A DNA stretch of 64,000 nt, from the NCBI GenBank assembly GCA_013336285.1, contig JAAXTX010000002.1, forward strand, positions 13,730 through 77,729, in the 5' to 3' direction. This stretch comes from Candidatus Moraniibacteriota bacterium (GTDB lineage Bacteria > Patescibacteriota > Minisyncoccia > Moranbacterales > UBA1568). The first letter of the stretch is position 1; every line of letters begins with the position of its first letter. Of this stretch, positions 11,018 to 46,454 are shown piece by piece. A program made the position numbers and the translations under genes. The notes beneath the pieces are model-generated. The model worked only from the letters and a program-made list of their open reading frames with translations. It was not told where the DNA came from and did no database searches.

Positions 11018-11734
11018 CTATCCGATGATGTGCGCGAGAAAGAGTTTCCGAATCCTGGTCAGTTCCGCGAGGTCCGATCCGCCGACGCGGACCTTGAGGA
11101 TCGACGGAAGCCGATTGCCGAGTATGAGACGGATAAGTTTCACGGCGTTCTCCCCGATCCGGACGGAATGTGAACCGGCATGTTCCTCGGTGACGATGCC
11201 GCCCATCTCGGGACTGAAGAAACAGCGATTCCCGGAACTGAGCGGTCCGCCGGACGCTGCGCACGCGTCGGCTTCGATCCGATATCCGAGTTCGTCGAAC
11301 AGCCGTATGAAGAACGCTTCGGTCAGCAGCGGCGTGAGAGGCATCTTCCCTTCGTGGACAAGACCGTCGAGCAACGAAAGGTATTCCGACAGCATGAAAA
11401 AAAGCCTTTCATCAGGCTGTTCCAATCCTACGAGACGATCGAACACCGAAGCCGTGTCAAGCCCCGTCGAAAGCGTCTCGTACTCACCCCGAAGCGCCAT
11501 GAACGACTCCTCGGCGATCGCGCCGGCCACCTTGCCGATCCCGCGGCCGCGCACGACCGTCACATCCGAAAGCGTGAGTGTCTCGAGCGCTGCGGCAAGT
11601 TTTGCGGCCGGCTTTCGTACGCCGATCGCCTTCGCCTGTACCTTGCCCATTTCTCGGGTAAAGAAAGTATACAGACGATCGGTCTCCCCGATCTCTTTTT
11701 TGCGCAGTACGATAGCGGTCAATCGAAGCTCCAT
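11018..11734 (-). CDS. recO: DNA repair protein RecO
   Basis: The N-terminal OB-fold region MELRLTAIVLRKKEIGETDRLYTFFTREMGKVQAKAIGVRK matches the RecO pattern. The longer listed ORF (to 11836) is probably an upstream artefact. Confidence 0.65.
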   Translation of the reverse strand: MELRLTAIVLRKKEIGETDRLYTFFTREMGKVQAKAIGVRKPAAKLAAALETLTLSDVTVVRGRGIGKVAGAIAEESFMALRGEYETLSTGLDTASVFDRLVGLEQPDERLFFMLSEYLSLLDGLVHEGKMPLTPLLTEAFFIRLFDELGYRIEADACAASGGPLSSGNRCFFSPEMGGIVTEEHAGSHSVRIGENAVKLIRLILGNRLPSILKVRVGGSDLAELTRIRKLFLAHIIG

Positions 11735-11808: not shown

Positions 11809-12321
11809 TTAATCTTCCAGAAAACTCAGGATGCACTCAACCGAATCTCCGATTGCCGTATCGGTATCGAGAAATAGCTTCGGATCCGACATGATGCGAT
11901 AATCGAAGTCATTTCTCATGAAACATCTCTCCGCATCGTGATGCGCCGGATGCCGCTCCCGCGACCGGAATCTCCGCTCCCGCTCCGGTTCATCGATCCG
12001 ACAAACGACGACGCGGACGACATGTCCACTCTCGGCGATATGGGCGATCCGATCCGCATTGCCAAGACGGTCAAACGTCGCATCACAAACGATATCATGT
12101 CCACTTTCCAAAGCCTCGTCGATAAACTGGAACAGACGAACGTTCACTTCTCTGCTGAAGCGGTCGCTCTCTTGAAGCGATGTGCCGCTTTTTTGACGAT
12201 ACAATTCAATCTTCACGTCATCCTCGCAGCATCGAACGATTCCCAAGCGTTCGGAGACAATTTCGGAAAGGGTCGTCTTTCCCGAACCAGGCAACCCGCA
12301 GAATATAATGGCCCTACTCAT
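11809..12321 (-). CDS. P-loop NTPase/kinase (AAA_33-like), paralog 1
   Basis: 170 aa with the Walker A motif GLPGSGKTT at residues 9-17. It is about 45% identical to the 12915-13424 product. Confidence 0.7.
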   Translation of the reverse strand: MSRAIIFCGLPGSGKTTLSEIVSERLGIVRCCEDDVKIELYRQKSGTSLQESDRFSREVNVRLFQFIDEALESGHDIVCDATFDRLGNADRIAHIAESGHVVRVVVCRIDEPERERRFRSRERHPAHHDAERCFMRNDFDYRIMSDPKLFLDTDTAIGDSVECILSFLED

Positions 12322-12329
12322 AGAAAATA

Positions 12330-12878
12330 CTACAGCAAGCCGAGATAATCGAGACCGAGATACCCGACATTGACGTCGGTCAACTGTCCTGAACGGAGAT
12401 GTGTGCGAAACTCCGACAATGTCATCAATACCGCCTCCACATTCTCCCCATTGTCTTCCAAGCGCGGCTCGGCAATTTTTTCACAATCCGTTACGACGAA
12501 CGCATGCCTCCGGGACGACGCGTATGCATCCACCAGCAATGTTGCGACATATTGAAGCGTACCTCGATATCCGGTCTCCTCCAATAGCTCACGCGCCACA
12601 GCGACCTCCGGAGTTTCCCCTTCCTTCGCGCTGCCGCCCGGAAGTTCACACACGACCTTGGCCGGACCGGGCCTGTATTGTCTCGCGAGAATGACTTTTC
12701 CGTCCTTCGTCATCGGCAGACAACAGATCGGGTCATGCCCTCCCTGCAGATAGAAATCCGTCTCTCTCCCATCAGGGAGTCGGAACATCACCTTCTCAAT
12801 CACCCGACTGTATTTCCGAAAGACCTCTTCCCGGGAAAGTTCTTTCCATGGTTGAACTTTATCCATATTGATATTCAC
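12330..12878 (-). CDS. NUDIX hydrolase (ADP-ribose pyrophosphatase-like)
   Basis: NUDIX box GGSAKEGETPEVAVARELLEETG. Confidence 0.85.
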   Translation of the reverse strand: MNINMDKVQPWKELSREEVFRKYSRVIEKVMFRLPDGRETDFYLQGGHDPICCLPMTKDGKVILARQYRPGPAKVVCELPGGSAKEGETPEVAVARELLEETGYRGTLQYVATLLVDAYASSRRHAFVVTDCEKIAEPRLEDNGENVEAVLMTLSEFRTHLRSGQLTDVNVGYLGLDYLGLL

Positions 12879-12914
12879 TACCGAATAAAATGATTCGGAA
12901 AGAAATTACTTTCC

Positions 12915-13424
12915 TCAATTGAGAAACTTTATAATTTTCTCAACTGACTCCCCTATCGGCTTTGCCGTATCTAACAAGAGTTTCTTTCCCGGCATCAATC
13001 CATAATCAAATATATCCTCGAAAAAAGTTCTCTCCGTGCCATGATATGCCTCATGCCGAGGACGGCTGACAAACCTCCGCTTTCGTTCTTCTTCGTCCAC
13101 CCGACACACAATCACTCTTACATCCCGCCCCTCAGTCACCCATTTTACGAATTGTTCTACATTGTCCGGATGATTGAACGTCGACTCGATGATAATATCG
13201 GTTCCGTTCTTCATTGCGTCATCCGCCAAAGCGATGAGGAGTCGTATCGAATGAAATCCGATCTTCCGACTATCATCAAGACTCATTCCGTTCAGATACC
13301 CATGCAAACGCTTCTTGACCGCATCCTTATGCAAGCAGAATATGTTCATCTGACACGAAACCTCGGTCGCGAGAGTCGTCTTCCCCGAACCGGGTAAACC
13401 ACAAAATACGATGACCCTGTTCAT
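12915..13424 (-). CDS. P-loop NTPase/kinase (AAA_33-like), paralog 2
   Basis: 169 aa with GLPGSGKTT and a conserved ...VCR(I/V)DE(P/E)ER(E/K)RRF.SR.RH.A.H..ER.F..DFDY..M block shared with paralog 1. It overlaps the ileS stop by 4 nt. Confidence 0.7.
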   Translation of the reverse strand: MNRVIVFCGLPGSGKTTLATEVSCQMNIFCLHKDAVKKRLHGYLNGMSLDDSRKIGFHSIRLLIALADDAMKNGTDIIIESTFNHPDNVEQFVKWVTEGRDVRVIVCRVDEEERKRRFVSRPRHEAYHGTERTFFEDIFDYGLMPGKKLLLDTAKPIGESVEKIIKFLN

Positions 13425-16400
13425 ACATTCCGTTTGAGTGCGAAGGAAAACATCCCCCCCTCTATCTTCGCGATCTCGCGATAGTCCGCATCCGCTATAT
13501 CGCCGCGAACGACTTCGGTCGCAAGTGTCTCGCGCGCGATCTCATCCCCGAATCCGTTCACCTCGACATCTCCGTCGAAGACCCGCTCCTTCCCCACGAT
13601 ACCGAGCGTGATCCTATCACTCACCTCGAATCCGGCTTTCTTGCGCCCTTCCTGGATCGCCCGAATGATTTCCCGTGCCTCGCCTTCGAGTGCGAGCTGT
13701 GGGGTGATTTCGGTATCCAATGCGATATCTTCGACCGTGGAACCGTCGAAACAGACTCCTTTAACATTGAGCTCCTCGAAAATGATCCGCTCCAAGAACA
13801 ATCTATCCTGAGAATCCGAGACGGCATCGAAAAGTTCCTGGTATTTCTCGCTTTTCAGCCGGATCTCGTTCAGAGGTTGCCGTACCTTGATTTTCGCCTC
13901 GGCACGTTTCTGAAGTCCTGAGCTGACAATCTCTCTCACCTGACTCATCATCACATTTAGCTTTTCATCAATTTTTCCTTCATCCGTTTCCGGCCACTCG
14001 GCAAGATGGACCGACCCGGGAACATCCTTAGATTCCGGGTCAAGCCCGGAATGACAATTCATAAGGTTCAGATAGATCTCCTCGGAAATGAACGGGGTGA
14101 ACGGTGCCATGAGCTTCGAGAGCGTGACGAGTACCTCGTAGAGCGTCGCATAGGCGGCGTCCTTGTCTCCGTCGTTCTCGTTCTTCCAGAAGCGCTTCCG
14201 ATTCCGGCGGATATACCAGTTCGACAGTTCATCGATGAACGATTCGATCTTGGCCGTCGGCGAATACAGGTCGTACGACGCGAGTGCCTCATCGACCTCG
14301 CGGACCAGCGCCTGCAGTTCGGACAAAATCCAGCGATCGAGGATATTCTCGGATTTCTTCGCATCCTTCCTTGGTTCCCACCCGTCGATCGACGCGTACG
14401 TCGTGAAGAACGAATACGAGTTCCAGAGCATCCGGAAGATGCGGTTCATCACGTCGCGCATCCCTTTCTCGTCGAACCGTTTCGGCAGTCCCGGCTGGTT
14501 GATGGAATACAGATACCACCGCAGCGCGTCCGCCCCGTATTTCTCGAACATCTCGAACGGATCCACGACGTTCCCCTTGGACTTGGACATCTTCTTTCCC
14601 TTCGCATCGAGGACGTGTCCCAGACAGACGACGTTCTGATACGCGTTTCCTTCGCGCACGACTCCCGCCTTGTGAAGCAAGGTCGCGATCGCGTGCAGCG
14701 TGTAGAACCACCCGCGGGTCTGATCGATCGCCTCACTGATATAATCAGCCGGGAAGTACTTCCCTTCGCCGATCCCGTTTTTCTCCTCGTCGGTCGCGCT
14801 TGCGGGAAATCCGAACTGCGCCAAGGGCATCGCTCCGGAATCGAACCACACGTCGAGCACCTCGGGTGTCCGTTTCATCGCCCCCTTCCCGCATTCGCAC
14901 GGCCACCATACTTCATCGATATACGGCTTGTGTAGGTCTTCCGGTTTCTTTCCGGACAGTTCCTTAAGTTTCGCTTTCGAATCGACAACCATCCTATGCC
15001 CACACCCGGTGCATTCCCATACCGGAATCGGCGTCCCCCAATATCGGTCGCGCGAGATCGCCCAATCCTTCGCCCCCTTGAGCCACTCCCCGAAACGGCC
15101 TTCCTTGATGTGCTCCGGCACCCAAGCTATCGACTCGGCATTCTGCGTAAGCTCCTCACGGACCGTGCTCATCGCGATAAACCACGACGGCTTCGCATAA
15201 TAAATCAAAGGCGTATCACACCGCCAGCAATGCGGATACTCATGCTCGTATACTTCTTCACGTAAGAGCAATCCGCGCTCACGGAGATCCGCGACGACGA
15301 GTTCGTCCACGGCAGACTTGTTCTTGTCATTCTTTTTCTTGACCGGCATACCGGCCCCGGGAAACCCTTTCAGCATCTTTCCCTCGAGGTCCACCGTGTG
15401 AAGTGTGGGAAGTCCGTTCGCCCGTGCAAGCTCCGCGTCATCCTCACCGAATGCCGGCGCGATATGCACGATGCCGGACCCGTCATCGGTCGTCACGAAG
15501 CCCGCCGCATATACTTTCCAGGCGTTCTCCAGGTTTTCATCCGCACCTTCAGCCGTTCCTTGGAACAATGGCTCATACGCGACTCCGACCAACTTCCCGC
15601 CAAGCACTGTCTCGTTCACTGTGAAAGCATCGGGTGATACGGCATCTTTCCGACCCGAGGCCATAATGAGATTTTCCGATACCGACTCGGCACCCTCGGC
15701 TGTGCCGGGCGCCGCGACCGTCCCCACCACGTATTCGATATCCCCGTTCACGGCAAGCGCGACATTCCCCGGAAGCGTCCACGGTGTCGTCGTCCACGCG
15801 ACGAGATACGTTCGGTCATCGGCAGTGAATGCGCCGATCTTCTGACCGGGCTTCACCCGGAATTTCACGAATGCGGAAGTATCCTTCACGGTCTGATATC
15901 CCTGAGCTACCTCGTGCGAGGAGAGCGCTGTCCCACACCGGTAGCAATACGGCACGACCTTATGCCCCCGATAGAGGAGATCGTTCCCGTTCGTATCCTT
16001 CTGTTCCGCGATCTTCGAGAACTGCCACCAGACCGATTCGATATAGCTATCCTCATAGGTGACATACGGATGTTCCATATCCACCCAGTACCCCATACGC
16101 TTCGTGAGCTTCTCCCACAGATCCCGATACTCCCAGACGGATTCTTTGCACTTACTATTGAACTCGATGACACTCGCGCGCGTATCGCCCGGCACGATGT
16201 TCTCGATATCCTGCTTATTCCTGAGTCCGAGCGCCTTTTCCACCTGGAGCTCGACCGGCAATCCGTGCGTGTCCCATCCGGCCTTGCGGCGAACACGATA
16301 ACCCTTCATCGTCTTGTAACGCGGCACGGCATCCTTGAACGATCGGGCAAGCACATGGTGCAAGCCCGGCTTCCCGTTGGCCGTCGGCGGTCCCTCATAA

Positions 16401-16528
16401 AAGACGAAGTCTCCTTTCGGCGCATCCTTCTCGACGGACTTCCTAAAGATATCGTTCGCGTCCCAATACGCGAGAATTTCTTCCTCCATCTTCGGGAAAT
16501 CGGATTTGGGGTCGATTTTTCTGATCAT
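13421..16528 (-). CDS. ileS: Isoleucyl-tRNA synthetase
   Basis: 1035 aa with the HIGH-type motif PPTANGKPGLHHV, KMSKS as KMSKSKGN, and editing and anticodon-binding regions. Confidence 0.95.
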   Translation of the reverse strand: MIRKIDPKSDFPKMEEEILAYWDANDIFRKSVEKDAPKGDFVFYEGPPTANGKPGLHHVLARSFKDAVPRYKTMKGYRVRRKAGWDTHGLPVELQVEKALGLRNKQDIENIVPGDTRASVIEFNSKCKESVWEYRDLWEKLTKRMGYWVDMEHPYVTYEDSYIESVWWQFSKIAEQKDTNGNDLLYRGHKVVPYCYRCGTALSSHEVAQGYQTVKDTSAFVKFRVKPGQKIGAFTADDRTYLVAWTTTPWTLPGNVALAVNGDIEYVVGTVAAPGTAEGAESVSENLIMASGRKDAVSPDAFTVNETVLGGKLVGVAYEPLFQGTAEGADENLENAWKVYAAGFVTTDDGSGIVHIAPAFGEDDAELARANGLPTLHTVDLEGKMLKGFPGAGMPVKKKNDKNKSAVDELVVADLRERGLLLREEVYEHEYPHCWRCDTPLIYYAKPSWFIAMSTVREELTQNAESIAWVPEHIKEGRFGEWLKGAKDWAISRDRYWGTPIPVWECTGCGHRMVVDSKAKLKELSGKKPEDLHKPYIDEVWWPCECGKGAMKRTPEVLDVWFDSGAMPLAQFGFPASATDEEKNGIGEGKYFPADYISEAIDQTRGWFYTLHAIATLLHKAGVVREGNAYQNVVCLGHVLDAKGKKMSKSKGNVVDPFEMFEKYGADALRWYLYSINQPGLPKRFDEKGMRDVMNRIFRMLWNSYSFFTTYASIDGWEPRKDAKKSENILDRWILSELQALVREVDEALASYDLYSPTAKIESFIDELSNWYIRRNRKRFWKNENDGDKDAAYATLYEVLVTLSKLMAPFTPFISEEIYLNLMNCHSGLDPESKDVPGSVHLAEWPETDEGKIDEKLNVMMSQVREIVSSGLQKRAEAKIKVRQPLNEIRLKSEKYQELFDAVSDSQDRLFLERIIFEELNVKGVCFDGSTVEDIALDTEITPQLALEGEAREIIRAIQEGRKKAGFEVSDRITLGIVGKERVFDGDVEVNGFGDEIARETLATEVVRGDIADADYREIAKIEGGMFSFALKRNV
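14041..14066. repeat. REP-like palindrome copy inside the ileS coding sequence (in-frame, encodes CHSGLDPE)
   Basis: GATTCCGGGTCAAGCCCGGAATGACA is the reverse complement of the 2283-2305 element. Confidence 0.55.
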
Positions 16529-16694
16529 ATGTTTGATATCAATAGAATTATATGACGATTGCTATGACACGAAAACCTCTCATTTCCCAAAGCTACGGAT
16601 GGCGCCACCCTTGATTATCACTCTCTTGCAAAATACCATCCCAACCACACATACAGCTTATTTCAAGAATAAGCATGCCCCTTCAAGCCTAACC

Positions 16695-16722
16695 TTGACT
16701 TTTCTTTATTTTCATGTATAAT
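16695..16722 (+). promoter_or_regulatory. Near-consensus sigma70-type promoter TTGACT-N16-TATAAT
   Basis: TTGACTtttctttattttcatgTATAAT, about 55 nt upstream of the small ORF at 16778. Confidence 0.5.
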
Positions 16723-16777
16723 AGAAGTAAGTTGAAAAACTGGCTTCTTAGCTTCTTAAAAATCATAAAAATCTACC

Positions 16778-16927
16778 ATGAAAAAATTTATCGTTTCCGC
16801 ACCCCTTGTGGGAATGCTCGCCTTCCTCGGCCTTGTAGTGGCGGCGGAAGGCAGCGAGGGTTTCTTGCGAGCGTTAAGCTCGCTTGGGACCGCTTTCTGC
16901 ACTGGTCCAATAATTTTTTTACACTAG
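16778..16927 (+). CDS. Small secreted or membrane peptide (49 aa) with N-terminal signal-like helix
   Basis: MKKFIVSAPLVGMLAFLGLVVAAEGSEGFLRALSSLGTAFCTGPIIFLH. It has its own promoter and a downstream hairpin plus T7, and lies in a low-GC insert. It is below the ORF-track size cutoff. Confidence 0.4.
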   Translation: MKKFIVSAPLVGMLAFLGLVVAAEGSEGFLRALSSLGTAFCTGPIIFLH

Positions 16928-17037
16928 GTTTGAAAACTTACGGCTGCTGGTCTATGATCGGCAGTTTTTTTATTCCAGTATCTTAAAAGGCAAGTCCTCT
17001 TTTGGAAATCCGTCTTCGGATCGATCTTTCTGATCAT
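16924..17037 (-). pseudogene. Orphan duplicate of the ileS 5' terminus (MIRKIDPKTDFQK... followed by out-of-context sequence)
   Basis: About 40 bp at 16998-17040 match the ileS start region 16488-16530 at about 82% identity, with shared TTTCTGATCATAT. The first 13 codons match IleRS MIRKIDPKSDFPK. Confidence 0.5.
16941..16971 (+). terminator. Intrinsic terminator (hairpin CGGCTGCTGG...CGGCAG followed by T7)
   Basis: Imperfect stem followed by TTTTTTT, immediately after the small ORF. Confidence 0.4.
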
Positions 17038-17048
17038 ATTCGATTCGA

Positions 17049-17468
17049 TTATTGATCTAATGAGGCTAGAAACGCCGCCTCATCCGGATACCGCTCCTCG
17101 AAAATGAGATAGAGCGTTTCCGGTTTTTCAGGTTCGCCGATCAGGATCAGATGTTTACCGAGCCCGTACGCGATCCCCGCCTCGATATGAGCGGCGTTCC
17201 CGCACGGCAGCAACATGATGACTTTCTCCGCATTCTTCAATCCGTCCAAGTCGCAACGGAACATATCGATGAAATGCGGGTTTGTATAAAAATTCTCGGT
17301 CGCTTCATGTATCGCCATCTGTTCCTCGGGACTTGCGTCCGGATTCTTCGGATCAGCCGGTATCTCGCAGAAATCATAGCAGGTCTTTCCCCGTTTACGC
17401 AGTTCGGCAACCAGCGCCTGCACCCGTTCCTTGTTTCGGAATTTCGAAATGATGGTGAAATCGGTCAT
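17049..17468 (-). CDS. Nucleoside 2-deoxyribosyltransferase-like (PF05014-like) protein
   Basis: The LPCGNAAHIEAGIAYGLGKHLILIG motif and a size of about 139 aa fit the NDT-like fold. The start is assigned to MTDFTIIS..., and the longer listed ORF would run over a terminator hairpin. Confidence 0.5.
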   Translation of the reverse strand: MTDFTIISKFRNKERVQALVAELRKRGKTCYDFCEIPADPKNPDASPEEQMAIHEATENFYTNPHFIDMFRCDLDGLKNAEKVIMLLPCGNAAHIEAGIAYGLGKHLILIGEPEKPETLYLIFEERYPDEAAFLASLDQ

Positions 17469-17717
17469 AGCGGTTGATACAAAAAATCCCTCCCCGAAAG
17501 ACAGGGAAGGACGGAAAGACCGTGGTACCACCTTCGTTCGCGACGACCGAACCGTCCGATCATCGCCTTCGTGTACGGCTGTCACGGGCCTACCCGTCGG
17601 ATTCTACCGCGCCAAGCCGAAGCGCTTCGCGAAGGCTGGCTGCCTTCTCACGTATGACTGACGTTTCTTTCCGAGGCGTACCCCGATACGGATCGGGGCT
17701 CCGGAGTGATGGCTCCG
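17469..17717 (-). promoter_or_regulatory. GC-rich structured leader with intrinsic terminator immediately upstream of the NDT-like gene (candidate riboswitch/attenuator)
   Basis: On the minus strand it has long-range complementary segments (GGACGG...CCGTCC). It ends with a CCTTCCCTG...GGGGAGGGA hairpin plus T6 about 10 nt before the ATG. No coding potential. Confidence 0.3.
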
Positions 17718-18209
17718 TTATCGCCGTTCCCTATTGTGAAGCCCGTCCCGGTTCCGGGAAAATATCTCCCATCCCTTGCGGATATCATCCCGTACTCCGG
17801 GAATGAAGTCAAATCCGGAAAGGTCTTCGATCGACTGCCAGCGACATTCGGAGTGTTCGTGTTCATCGCATACGGGCTCCGTCCGCCCTTCGCCATACCC
17901 CTCACAGAAACAGACGAACTTTATGCCCGGGATCTTTTTCTGCGACAGGTCCGGTACGGCGATCTCATACGTCGAGAACGGTATCGCTCCGCCGATACGG
18001 ATGTCGAATTCCTCGCGCATCTGCCGGACGACCGCTTCCTCGAAATTCTCACCGGCGTGTACCTGACCGCCACCGCATTCCCACTGCCCGGGATAGAGTG
18101 CCCGGGTCTCTTGCCGTTTCGCGATCAGCGCGACGATACCGGCCTCCGTCTCCCGGAGACAGATGCCTGCCACATGTACCTCGATGAGTTCACGATGATC
18201 TTCCCTCAT
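17718..18209 (-). CDS. NUDIX hydrolase (MutT-like)
   Basis: NUDIX box GGGQVHAGENFEEAVVRQMREEFDI. Confidence 0.8.
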   Translation of the reverse strand: MREDHRELIEVHVAGICLRETEAGIVALIAKRQETRALYPGQWECGGGQVHAGENFEEAVVRQMREEFDIRIGGAIPFSTYEIAVPDLSQKKIPGIKFVCFCEGYGEGRTEPVCDEHEHSECRWQSIEDLSGFDFIPGVRDDIRKGWEIFSRNRDGLHNRERR

Positions 18210-18226: not shown

Positions 18227-18838
18227 CTATCGATTCTCGGACAACAGGTGTGCCCTGATCTCGGAGTCTATCTCGACTCGGGTCACCGACCCCGTCTCGG
18301 GATACCAGCTGTCTTTGCCCGCACTCTCACCGACAGTCTCTCCGAACAAGGCGCCGTGCAGCTGTTCAAGGGGATCGCCATGCGAAACGAGAGCAATCCG
18401 ACATCCGGCGAATTCACGAAGTACGTCCCGGACGGATTCGACCATCCGCTGCCGCATAGCCTGATACCCTTCGGTCCCCTCCTCGACATTGCCATCAATA
18501 TATGATGACAGGGCGGGGTGTCTTTCCCTGAACTCGTCGATGGGCCTCCCGTTCCATATGCCATTATCGGATTCCCGCAGTCGTTCGTCGAACCGTATCG
18601 ACAAGCCACCGCATGCCTCTGAAACGATTTCCGCCGTTTCGCGGGTACGCCTCATGGGCGACGAAAAAAGAGCATCGATTCCCTCTGCCGCAACCACTCC
18701 CGCAGACAGTGACACTTGCCGTCGTCCAATCTCTGTCAGGCCGAAAGCGGGATTTCCGGGGAACGAATCCAAAATGCCGCGGGTATTCGATTCCGCCTCT
18801 CCATGCCGTATAAGAAAAAAGACTGTCACACGTTCCAT
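18227..18838 (-). CDS. Histidine phosphatase family protein (phosphoglycerate mutase-like)
   Basis: The RHG motif FFLIRHGEAESN, a downstream RR and TAE; the start is probably MERVTVFF... Confidence 0.7.
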   Translation of the reverse strand: MERVTVFFLIRHGEAESNTRGILDSFPGNPAFGLTEIGRRQVSLSAGVVAAEGIDALFSSPMRRTRETAEIVSEACGGLSIRFDERLRESDNGIWNGRPIDEFRERHPALSSYIDGNVEEGTEGYQAMRQRMVESVRDVLREFAGCRIALVSHGDPLEQLHGALFGETVGESAGKDSWYPETGSVTRVEIDSEIRAHLLSENR

Positions 18839-18878
18839 ATCGTTAACAGTCCATAAATCGAAGGATGTAGAAGAAACT

Positions 18879-19049
18879 TCAATAGGACGCATGCGCCGTC
18901 TTCACCGCGGAAGCGAGCCCCTTGGCTCCCCCGTGCGCGGCTGACGATATGTCGATGCCTGCCGCTATTATAAGCGACAGCACGACCGGAACGACGATCT
19001 TCACCGCGAAGAACACCGTCTGCTCATCTTTTCCAAACTTCCGCGCCAT
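18879..19049 (-). CDS. Possible small membrane protein (56 aa)
   Basis: MARKFGKDEQTVFFAVKIVVPVVLSLIIAAGIDISS... has one predicted transmembrane helix, but there is no other support. Confidence 0.25.
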   Translation of the reverse strand: MARKFGKDEQTVFFAVKIVVPVVLSLIIAAGIDISSAAHGGAKGLASAVKTAHASY

Positions 19050-21849: not shown

Positions 21850-22246
21850 GGGGTTGTTTAGTTTCGACAGCGAGTTCATTCAGAACCTGCAAGCCGATGA
21901 TGGGGAGTCATCGTAAAAAATCCCCACACACGATATCTGCCAACATCGTATCAAAGGTGAAGATGGCGTTCGCTAACGCGTTCTCCCCGTCTTTCGCTTC
22001 AGCTCTCGCCTAAGGGCGTGAGCCATCGGACCCCCGATGTCTGATAGGGGTCATCCGGTGTCATATCATCAGACGGACCGACAGGAGTCTTTCCTCCATT
22101 CACTTCGTCGGCCCGGCATGAAAAGAGGCCCTGGGAAGGTTTCCGTCCGCCTTTCCGCTTTCCGGGGAACCAAAGGCTGACTATGCTTGTAGACGGTTTT
22201 GGAAAAACCCGTTTGGACATGGGTGCGATTCCCATCAACTCCACAC
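21850..22246 (+). ncRNA. ssrA: tmRNA (ssrA)
   Basis: The 5' end GGGGTTGTTTAGTTTCGACAGCG matches the tmRNA 5' consensus GGGGCUGAUUCUGGAUUCGACGGG. The 3' end has the T-arm GGGTGCGATTCCCAT and the acceptor strand CAACTCC+A pairing with GGGGUUG, including the G3:U pair. An internal in-frame tag reading frame ...AFANAFSPSFASALA* ends about 21960-22012. It sits immediately downstream of smpB. Confidence 0.7.
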
Positions 22247-45737: not shown

Positions 45738-46454
45738 ATGCTTTCCATAAAAAATCTTTCGGCCGCGATCAGTGACAAGGAAATACTTCTCGGAATCACG
45801 CTCGATTTCGAACCGGGAAAGACGTACGTCGTCCTCGGACCGAACGGATCGGGCAAGTCGACATTGGCCGCAACGATCATGGGACGGCCGGATATCGCCG
45901 TTACCGACGCATCCGAACTCGCATGGAACGGAGAGAACCTGAAGGCCTTGTCGGCGGACAAGCGCGCGAGGCTCGGCATTTTCCTTTCCTTCCAGTCCCC
46001 GCTTCCGATTCCCGGCGTCTCGGTCGAGGAACTTCTCCGCTGCGCACTCGACGGAGAGAAGGATCTCGTCGCCCTTCACAAGGAACTCCGCGGGTTCGCG
46101 AAAGAAATCGGCCTCGACGAGGAATTCCTCTCCCGATCCATCCATGACGGTTTTTCCGGGGGCGAACGCAAGAAAGTCGAGGCGATCCAAGCCGCAGCAC
46201 TCGCGCCGTCGCTTGCGATTTTCGATGAGATCGACACCGGCACCGATACGGACGCCGTGAAGCGGATCGCGGAATTCCTTTCGGCTCATCTCCCACAGGA
46301 GGCGACAAAAATATTTATCACGCATTCCCCGAAGCTCATAGAGCTCCTGCGCCCCGATTCGGTCGTCATCCTGAAGGAAGGCCGTGTGGTGGCCGAGGGC
46401 GGGCGTGATCTTGCCGTGAAGACGATCAAGGAGGGATTCGAAGGGATCAAGTAA
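45738..46454 (+). CDS. sufC: FeS assembly ATPase SufC
   Basis: Walker A GPNGSGKST, the ABC signature FSGGERKK and a length of 238 aa. Confidence 0.9.
   Translation: MLSIKNLSAAISDKEILLGITLDFEPGKTYVVLGPNGSGKSTLAATIMGRPDIAVTDASELAWNGENLKALSADKRARLGIFLSFQSPLPIPGVSVEELLRCALDGEKDLVALHKELRGFAKEIGLDEEFLSRSIHDGFSGGERKKVEAIQAAALAPSLAIFDEIDTGTDTDAVKRIAEFLSAHLPQEATKIFITHSPKLIELLRPDSVVILKEGRVVAEGGRDLAVKTIKEGFEGIK

Follow-up and report, generated by a model that had tools for sequence, protein, structure and literature searches.

P-loop kinases and Nudix hydrolases of the ADP-ribose pyrophosphatase (ADPRase) type serve one nucleotide-cofactor pathway in NAD salvage, where NadR carries a P-loop ribosylnicotinamide kinase domain and NadM a Nudix ADPRase domain (PMC9503650). 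Here we describe a locus with the same two kinds of enzyme, in a window (the whole stretch of DNA analyzed) of 64,000 nucleotides (nt) from Candidatus Moraniibacteriota bacterium (GenBank assembly GCA_013336285.1, contig JAAXTX010000002.1, positions 13,730 to 77,729 of the forward strand), in which a NUDIX hydrolase gene is flanked by genes for two paralogous P-loop kinases, kinB and kinA, and all three genes lie between ileS, encoding isoleucyl-tRNA synthetase (IleRS), and recO. Unlike the NadR/NadM system, this locus contains no NMN adenylyltransferase, and its kinases belong to the AAA_33 family of Pfam, and within it to the group of PDB entry 2RHM, with AAA_28 scores of 13.7-16.7 against a cut-off of 27. 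Our literature searches returned nothing on the function of an AAA_33 kinase paired with a Nudix enzyme, or of a Nudix insertion in IleRS. We find that the position after ileS is a variable slot, that the window holds the union of the contents seen in different Moranbacteria, and that the kinase-NUDIX-kinase sandwich is a mosaic specific to its lineage, made of two genes each of which recurs after ileS independently of the other. The explanation that we favor, and to which we give about an even chance, is that the variable slot, the duplicated kinases and the loosely linked NUDIX gene represent a co-expressed nucleotide housekeeping or salvage set. The order of these genes on the minus strand, from the list of open reading frames (ORFs) of the window, is as follows:

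13421 to 16528, minus strand: ileS, isoleucyl-tRNA synthetase, 1035 amino acids (aa); ORF, with orthologues in relatives that match Pfam tRNA-synt_1/Anticodon_1/DUF5915
12915 to 13424, minus strand: kinB, ileS-coupled P-loop kinase, 169 aa; AAA_33, 74.4 bits
12330 to 12866, minus strand: NUDIX hydrolase, predicted to be of the NudF/ADP-ribose (ADP-sugar) pyrophosphatase type, 178 aa; PF00293, 58.9 bits
11809 to 12321, minus strand: kinA, the second kinase paralogue, 170 aa; AAA_33, 70.5 bits
11018 to 11734, minus strand: recO, 238 aa, the downstream edge of the variable slot; RecO_N/RecO_C, and TIGR00613 at 89.4 bits

The stop codon of ileS and the start codon of kinB overlap by 4 nt in the window (ATGA), and the same ileS-kinase overlap is found in 12 of the 22 species-level genome loci that we obtained with an 11-sequence kinase alignment as query, and also in L123-L125. 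For example, the order is ileS-kinase-recO in L001, L004 and L007, where the kinases (P0002, P0003 and P0006) are 80%, 75% and 52% identical to KinB, and KinB is the orthologue of this single post-ileS kinase of relatives. Other relatives have ileS-NUDIX-recO (L012-L014 and L037, with NUDIX proteins 82-89% identical to that of the window), or ileS-NUDIX-590aa-recO with an ileS/NUDIX overlap (L117 and L118), and L011 has ileS-NUDIX-kinase-recO, with a NUDIX protein 58% identical to that of the window and a kinase 58% identical to KinA. Among the related loci that we examined, the kinase-NUDIX-kinase order occurs in the window only. Slot genes typically overlap the ileS stop codon by 1-4 nt or start about 10 nt after it, and the recurrence of both families at the slot reaches down to an IleRS identity of 44-47%. 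The preliminary description of this DNA had held that the arrangement is not a standard operon, and our survey agrees; its sandwich is not a conserved unit, as relatives have the kinase alone, the NUDIX gene alone, or the NUDIX gene followed by the kinase instead. The gene arrangement itself, being a one-genome mosaic, is therefore of minor weight.

That the kinase and the NUDIX gene occupy the same post-ileS position in different lineages follows from the homology of the proteins of about 590 aa encoded downstream: in L123 the kinase gene lies between ileS and the gene for a 586-aa protein, a homologue of which follows the NUDIX gene in L117 (36% identity, E 3e-110) and in L118 (34%, E 4e-41). 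This conserved protein of about 570-600 aa, which has no Pfam match, is encoded after the slot at the following positions:

L117, 5550 to 7343
L118, 5552 to 7258
L123, 5903 to 7663

An ORF of 590 aa in L027 (696-2468) is a candidate member of the same family. The protein is absent from the window, where recO comes directly after kinA.

Translation of the NUDIX gene most likely starts at the ATG at 12866, which we prefer over the GTG at 12878 because the NCBI protein (P0017) has 178 aa and its homologues have 179 aa. Similarly, recO most likely starts at the ATG at 11734 and not at the GTG at 11836, since the RecO_N domain of the longer ORF does not begin until residue 35 and the RecO proteins of relatives are 237-241 aa long. 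The spacers are then 48 nt between kinB and the NUDIX gene (36 nt with the GTG start), 8 nt between the NUDIX gene and kinA, and 74 nt between kinA and recO. The co-orientation of the three genes, with ileS upstream and recO downstream, was correctly described at the outset, but the gaps of 4-36 nt given then become 8 and 48 nt with the revised starts. NCBI names the identical proteins (100% matches, from a Candidatus Moranbacteria metagenome-assembled genome, MAG) "ATP-binding protein" for both kinases and "NUDIX hydrolase" for the third.

Differential loss and/or cassette exchange must have occurred in the slot, because all of its contents are found at a similar IleRS identity to the window (76% for L001, 74% for L004, 71% for L012 and 69% for L011). 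We found no remnants of kinase or NUDIX pseudogenes in the spacers of the NUDIX-only loci. This variability is also the starting point for the strongest rival to a shared role, one that we regard as a real though lesser possibility, namely pure co-location: the position after ileS, an essential and constitutively expressed gene, would be a permissive "piggy-back" site, the functions of the genes held there would be unrelated, and the sandwich would be meaningless. The presence of all four contents (kinase, NUDIX, NUDIX-kinase and kinase-NUDIX-kinase) among genomes with IleRS proteins 69-76% identical speaks for co-location, as does the presence of family members elsewhere. NUDIX orthologues lie away from ileS in L119 and, among the matches listed in our metagenome search, in the mostly distant loci L038-L116, with L037 alone adjoining ileS, recO or a kinase gene. 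Likewise, 7 of the 22 kinase loci are not beside ileS and have other contexts, for example next to an NT5C nucleotidase gene (L026) or in the order IMPase-NUDIX-nucleoside-deoxyribosyltransferase-like-kinase (L036), and the contexts of the distant family members P0008 and P0010 showed no conserved neighbors. The unrelated domains that we find inside IleRS at three sites would also fit ileS as a tolerated landing site. Against pure co-location, it is the same two families, and not random genes, that recur at the slot over the range of IleRS divergence given above; kinase-NUDIX fusion proteins exist; and L036 pairs a kinase with the same NUDIX family as that of the window in a context free of ileS.

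KinA and KinB can be aligned over their whole length without a gap, with 44% identity (75/169, E 7e-48), a similarity far above what chance would give, and the best Pfam family for both is AAA_33 (PF13671, cut-off 27 bits), with weaker, overlapping matches to Zeta_toxin and AAA_18. This confirms the first account of two paralogous P-loop kinases of about 170 aa and about 45% identity, and both proteins also contain the N-terminal GLPGSGKTT and the block VCR(I/V)DE..ER.RRF.SR.RH.A.H..ER.F pointed out in it. Both lie outside the well-characterized stand-alone kinase families, scoring far below the cut-off of every NCBIfam equivalog model: gluconokinase (TIGR01313, 15.1 vs 113.75 bits), adenylate kinase (TIGR01351, 15-17.8 vs 168), shikimate kinase (15.3 vs 142), APS kinase (12.5-20.7 vs 127-244) and PSTK (19.5 vs 290.5). 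A profile of 73 family members matches PDB 2RHM (Caur_3907, a "putative kinase" of Chloroflexus aurantiacus from structural genomics) end to end, over profile positions 2-178 of 180 and including the R-x-R-H-P-G-H lid motif (E 1.3e-48). Structure prediction, proposed as a check in the preliminary description, gave AF2 (AlphaFold2) models of the same topology for the two paralogues (pLDDT 93.8 for KinB and 96.3 for KinA), and 2RHM ranks first in Foldseek for each (TM 0.78-0.84), followed by gluconate, sugar, shikimate and APS kinases (E 1e-9 to 1e-6, TM about 0.6-0.7) and by adenylate kinases. KinA and KinB are new members of a known family, the 2RHM-like AAA_33 kinases, which is very large (3381 cluster representatives at E<=1e-10) and in which 2RHM is the only solved member of their subfamily; at about 21-22% identity in the structural alignment, this full-length homologue and best fold match names the fold and not the activity. 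The gluconate, sugar, shikimate and APS kinases share with KinA and KinB the Walker A motif, the substrate-binding Asp after strand 2 and the Arg-rich lid, whereas the R123-H124-x-x-H127 motif is confined to the 2RHM-like group.

The fold ranking bears directly on two further rivals, both raised in the preliminary description. The first is RNA or DNA end repair, in which the kinases would be polynucleotide 5'-OH kinases like T4 Pnk or Pnkp and the NUDIX enzyme a 5'-end pyrophosphohydrolase, acting near ileS, recO and tgt. Several weak similarities point this way: both kinases match PHROG 505, "polynucleotide kinase" (E 4.8e-10 and 5.3e-8); the profile matches the CthPnkp kinase domain (E 6e-8) and T4 Pnk (1ly1, E 4.5e-6); and tblastn finds weak matches to mycobacteriophage polynucleotide kinase (PNK) genes (27% identity, E 1e-6), the phage and plasmid matches as a whole being only 24-29% identical and annotated as PNK or AAA ATPase. 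In addition, T4 Pnk, which we take to have Asp35, Arg38 and Arg122/126, would have a spacing like that of Asp34, Lys37 and the RxxxR lid of KinA and KinB. These similarities do not discriminate, as the PNK matches are weaker than or equal to those to APS kinase, PSTK and adenylate kinase, and the whole-kinase-domain profile similarity to T4 Pnk/Pnkp and to PSTK/KTI12 is weak, KinA and KinB being without a phosphatase or tRNA-binding domain. The 50 best Foldseek matches of either model contain small-molecule kinases but no PNK (T4 Pnk) structure, neither a phosphatase nor a ligase domain accompanies the kinases, the proteins of the family are mostly acidic (isoelectric point about 5-6.5), and the NUDIX protein is ADPRase-like and not RppH-like. 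We therefore hold end repair to be very unlikely.

The second is a toxin or resistance kinase, either zeta-toxin-like, acting on UDP-GlcNAc or NAD with the NUDIX enzyme as antidote, or a CPT-like antibiotic phosphotransferase. Zeta toxin/PezT and the AvrRxo1-type NAD kinases are likewise P-loop kinases and in known cases use nucleotide-sugar or NAD substrates, and our two kinases score 43 and 53.7 bits with Zeta_toxin (cut-off 22.3), although the stronger AAA_33 match overlaps this one. CPT gives 17.9 bits for KinB, below its cut-off of 22, and a distant homologue has glyoxalase/bleomycin-resistance-like and MFS genes in its vicinity. However, KinA and KinB, at 169-170 aa, are about 100 aa shorter than zeta toxin/PezT and cover only positions 18-153 of the 199 of the Zeta_toxin profile; their neighbors (ileS, the NUDIX gene and recO) include no antitoxin-like gene and form a stable housekeeping synteny; and zeta toxin/PezT and CPT structures are absent from the 50 best fold matches. 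A zeta-toxin-like kinase is thus contradicted by gene context, protein size and fold ranking, and we consider this account, in either form, highly improbable. A search for anti-phage defense systems with PADLOC gave noise-level matches only, the best being VakA at 21-24.8 bits, where the KinB match is confined to the P-loop region (residues 1-32), and PDC-S07 at 28.6 bits, where only the Nudix box is matched, and we rejected this candidate.

Invariant or nearly invariant positions of the kinase family are G9, G14, K15, T17, K33, D34, K37, C107, R117, R121, R123, H124, H127 and T153, of which the lid arginines R117 and R121 are invariant across the 73 members. KinA and KinB both retain the Walker A motif, Asp34, Lys37, Arg117-x3-Arg121 and Arg123-His124, and the spacing of K15, D34 and R117-x3-R121 is as in small-molecule kinases of the NMP-kinase fold. 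The shikimate kinase of M. tuberculosis, which we take to carry K15, D34 and R117, is a lead here and not a test. Since the ATP-binding and catalytic elements are kept and the predicted folds are confident, we infer that both proteins are active ATP-dependent small-molecule kinases. The R-x-R-H-x-x-H motif that follows the lid reads RERHPAHH in KinA and RPRHEAYH in KinB, where Tyr127 sits at the position at which 95% of family members have His. KinA deviates from the conserved positions by K33E and G56S, as does the L011 kinase, and KinB by H127Y and D129G, as do its close orthologues. The deviating positions probably contact the acceptor substrate, and since the paralogues differ there, the likeliest reading is that they serve two related, but not identical, substrates or steps.

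The duplication that gave rise to the two kinases is old. The sole close relative of KinA is the L011 kinase (P0012), which likewise is encoded directly after a NUDIX gene, and in a neighbor-joining tree these two form a long-branched clade beside the clade of KinB, L001, L004 and P0004, nested within the Moranbacteria ileS-linked group. A relative-rate test with P0006 as outgroup counted 37 unique changes in KinA versus 12 in KinB (chi2 12.8); with P0005 the counts were 39 versus 13, and the effect was weaker with three other outgroups. By these counts, KinA has evolved about three times faster than KinB. Because of this tree placement and these counts, we regard the pair as the product of an old duplication inside the ileS-linked kinase lineage of Moranbacteria and not as a recent tandem duplicate. 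The kinB copy is the conservative one, coupled to ileS, and the kinA copy is the fast-evolving one, located after the NUDIX gene.

The middle gene was already described as encoding a NUDIX hydrolase, and our analysis bears this out, with a PF00293 score well above the cut-off of 21.1 bits and a complete Nudix box (Gx5Ex7REUxEExGU, here G-SAKEG-E-TPEVAVA-RE-L-L-EE-T-G-Y). For the whole length of the protein we find homology to solved ADP-ribose/ADP-sugar pyrophosphatases (E 2.4e-17 from the single sequence, 1.2e-19 from the profile, positions 9-178 of which match 8wv3). The homology to NudF-type ADPRases (Bacillus NudF/Act, 8wv3/8zr8; Bdellovibrio NudF, 5c7q; Thermus Ndx2, 2yvm, and Ndx4, 1v8i; E. 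coli NudE) runs end to end and includes the N-terminal strand region, and NUDT5 is matched as well. We found 924 homologues, the closest 82-89% identical; the 179-aa proteins form a well-conserved family, with column identities that average 67% in an alignment of 31 sequences, and JGI names the homologues "ADP-ribose pyrophosphatase". Tyr115, about 15 residues past the Nudix box, is invariant in the alignment, near a position at which classical ADPRases presumably have Pro; we treat this as a lead only. Taken together, the protein appears to be a new member of the NudF-type NUDIX hydrolases, and we predict that it cleaves ADP-ribose or a related ADP-X compound to AMP and X-phosphate.

Whether the kinase and the NUDIX enzyme are linked in function can be judged from how often they are found together. 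The two genes are adjacent in the window and in L011, and are near each other in L036; in L022 a NUDIX domain lies within IleRS and the kinase gene comes next. Among the best 150 of the 3381 family representatives, two are kinase-NUDIX fusions (P0147 and P0275), one is fused to GrpB, another ends in a MazG/PRA-PH-like tail that stays below threshold, and seven are tandem kinase-kinase fusions (P0140, P0151, P0153, P0161, P0169, P0176 and P0191). Both kinase domains keep their motifs in P0140, and the second lid motif is degenerate in P0151. Paired kinase domains are thus recurrent in the 2RHM-like family outside the candidate phyla radiation (CPR) bacteria. In contrast, most kinase loci have no ORF with a Nudix box within 6 kb, and most NUDIX loci, among the matches listed, are without a kinase. 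These findings give weak to moderate support to a functional link between kinase and NUDIX, and a loose link is plausible, in which both enzymes would serve one field of nucleotide or sugar-phosphate metabolism.

The same evidence bears on a stricter version of this idea, in which two kinases catalyze consecutive phosphorylations around a NUDIX step in an obligate pathway of ADP-ribose, NAD or nucleotide salvage. The adjacency in the window, L011 and L036, the order in L022, the two kinase-NUDIX fusions, the recurrent pairing of kinase domains in tandem fusions, and the likely ADP-ribose pyrophosphatase type of the NUDIX enzyme are all consistent with such a pathway. However, the three-gene unit is seen in the window only, most loci of either family are without the other, and the NUDIX domains of P0147 and P0275 share only the Nudix box with the NUDIX protein of the window and belong to another subfamily. 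The coupled nucleotide or ADP-ribose pathway suggested in the preliminary description therefore stands as a possibility, in view of L011, L022, L036, P0147 and P0275, but its coupling is not obligate, and we judge an obligate three-step kinase/NUDIX pathway to be unlikely.

Our favored explanation, a co-expressed nucleotide housekeeping or salvage set, would work as follows. The three genes would be expressed together with ileS as housekeeping or salvage enzymes, in a host group that is often unable to make nucleotides de novo, as many CPR bacteria are without nucleotide synthesis (PMC7304191). KinB and KinA would each phosphorylate a different but related acceptor, and the NUDIX enzyme would split ADP-ribose or ADP-X into AMP and the phosphorylated moiety. 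The substrate of the kinases would be a small metabolite, phosphorylated or derived from a nucleotide, and not a nucleic acid, because of their fold relatives, the acidity of most of the proteins, and the partners that recur as neighbors or in fusions (NUDIX, a weak MazG-like region, GrpB, NT5C, IMPase, a nucleoside-deoxyribosyltransferase-like protein and His_Phos_1). The kinase-NUDIX link would be loose, the sandwich having arisen by gain and loss of cassettes in the slot. CPR bacteria rely on salvage, so that their as yet unassigned small kinases and NUDIX enzymes could plausibly fill gaps in nucleotide metabolism, and for a very large kinase family with a solved structure in 2RHM, the fusions (to NUDIX, to GrpB and to itself) and the coupling to ileS lead to a shortlist of nucleotide and sugar-phosphate substrates.

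Several observations weigh against this explanation, in addition to the different subfamily of the fused NUDIX domains. In CPR genomes, housekeeping genes that have nothing to do with each other are closely packed, which makes adjacency a weak argument. The contexts of the kinase away from ileS are heterogeneous and include glycosyltransferase clusters (L028 and L031) and a hydrogenase/Nuo cluster (L032), and the kinase is also found as a stand-alone gene in Actinobacteria-like contigs. The NUDIX protein of the window is 89% identical to that of L012 and 58% to that of L011, despite the similar IleRS identities of these two genomes (71% and 69%). For the enzymes themselves, a literature search returned no assigned function or substrate for 2RHM, and the NUDIX protein is below the cut-off of every NCBIfam equivalog, among them NudE (NF008736, 40.6 vs 169 bits) and YffH/AdpP (TIGR00052, 14.6 vs 79.55 bits).

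A scan for Nudix boxes brought to light inserted domains in 3 of 21 related IleRS proteins, at three different sites:

L022, 2738 to 6004, plus strand: IleRS with a complete inserted NUDIX domain at residues 219-320 (PF00293, E 9.8e-14), just before WTTTPWTLPGN
L037, 631 to 4710, plus strand: IleRS with an inserted His_Phos_1 domain at residues 620-789 (E 1.1e-30), between the zinc-knuckle cysteine pairs
L014, 2239 to 5844, plus strand: IleRS with an insertion of about 175 aa that contains THSLG (GxSxG-like) and has no Pfam match, after WTTTPWTLPGN

We take the region of the L014 insertion to be that of the CP1 editing domain. Two of the inserted domains resemble proteins encoded upstream of ileS in the window: the His_Phos_1 domain of L037 is 32% identical to the histidine phosphatase at 18227-18892 (E 4e-18), and the NUDIX domain of L022 is 27% identical to the MutT-like NUDIX protein at 17718-18209 (E 2e-8). 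The insertions hint that IleRS is linked to small phospho-hydrolase enzymes, and would be of interest to those who study aminoacyl-tRNA synthetases if they prove general.

Such a link would be expected if the kinase, the NUDIX enzyme and the inserted phosphatase or hydrolase domains act on a compound made or bound by IleRS, for example ApnA by-products, a non-cognate aminoacyl-adenylate or aminoacyl-tRNA, or an inhibitor that mimics the adenylate; the alternation of kinase and NUDIX in the slot would then be two chemistries by which one compound is removed or recycled. Besides the insertions (NUDIX, His_Phos_1 and a GxSxG hydrolase-like domain) and their resemblance to stand-alone neighbors of ileS in the window, this account is consistent with the translational coupling of either gene to ileS, which is kept over deep divergence, with the replacement in situ of NUDIX by kinase between ileS and the homologous gene of 590 aa, and with a weak similarity, over the full domain, of the kinases to PSTK, a kinase of aminoacyl-tRNA (E 5e-9 with the profile). 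However, members of both families are also found away from ileS, the 2RHM-like family outside CPR bacteria has no link to ileS in the contexts that we examined, and the insertions are restricted to a minority of the IleRS proteins and do not share a site. We know of no biochemical precedent, and our literature search found none. We consider such IleRS-linked house-cleaning improbable; if true, it would amount to a layer of quality control or house-cleaning, acting in trans or inserted in cis, that has not been described before for an aminoacyl-tRNA synthetase.

The remaining features near the slot are listed below, and downstream of recO lie genes for a 638-aa CLIPPER-like protein, tgt and a P-type ATPase.

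18227 to 18892, minus strand: stand-alone histidine phosphatase (His_Phos_1), upstream of ileS; PF00300, 120.9 bits
17718 to 18209, minus strand: second NUDIX protein, MutT-like, 163 aa, upstream of ileS; PF00293, 47.5 bits
12897 to 12914, minus strand: hairpin GGAAAG-TAATTT-CTTTCC, directly 3' of the kinB stop codon, with a weak match to a terminator-like consensus

The histidine phosphatase may be part of the same loose set of small phospho-enzymes. The position of the MutT-like NUDIX gene is held by a gene for a NUDIX protein of 158-159 aa in L001, L004, L011, L012 and L014. In the window its Nudix box deviates from the consensus (RQMREEFDI vs REUxEExGU), and catalysis may be altered or lost. 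Terminator-like hairpins were found at 11 sites, compared with 6.2 +/- 2.9 in shuffled sequences, and the hairpin after kinB is not significant on its own.

The MAGs that carry the kinase family include 11 titled "uncultured Bdellovibrionales bacterium" (L017, L019-L021, L023-L025, L027, L029, L030 and L033), most of which have parts of the Moranbacteria-type ileS-kinase-recO-CLIPPER-tgt synteny, and L036 is titled Gammaproteobacteria; the record taxonomy of all of these is probably wrong. A stretch of about 520 nt upstream of ileS in the window (16529-17048) is without a long ORF, and the same spot is filled by a gene for a 23S_rRNA_IVP (four-helix-bundle) protein in L001 (2096-2773), L011 (2540-3169) and L012 (1933-2637). 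The next region on the minus strand (17049-17471) encodes about 140 aa from an internal Met, 70% identical to the product of L012:1359-1775 and with a marginal similarity to nucleoside-2-deoxyribosyltransferases (E 0.089), which together with the His_Phos_1 protein lends the argS-ileS interval a flavor of nucleotide metabolism. Elsewhere in the window, an ORF on the plus strand (45738-46454) matches the kinase-family hidden Markov model weakly (15.3 bits) and encodes a P-loop protein that is probably unrelated. A scan with Rfam at gathering thresholds found no T-box or other element upstream of ileS, the sole RNA element of the window being a transfer-messenger RNA (tmRNA) gene on the plus strand (21850-22246; Rfam, 122.3 bits), for which ARAGORN predicts the tag peptide ANIVSKVKMAFANAFSPSFASALA.

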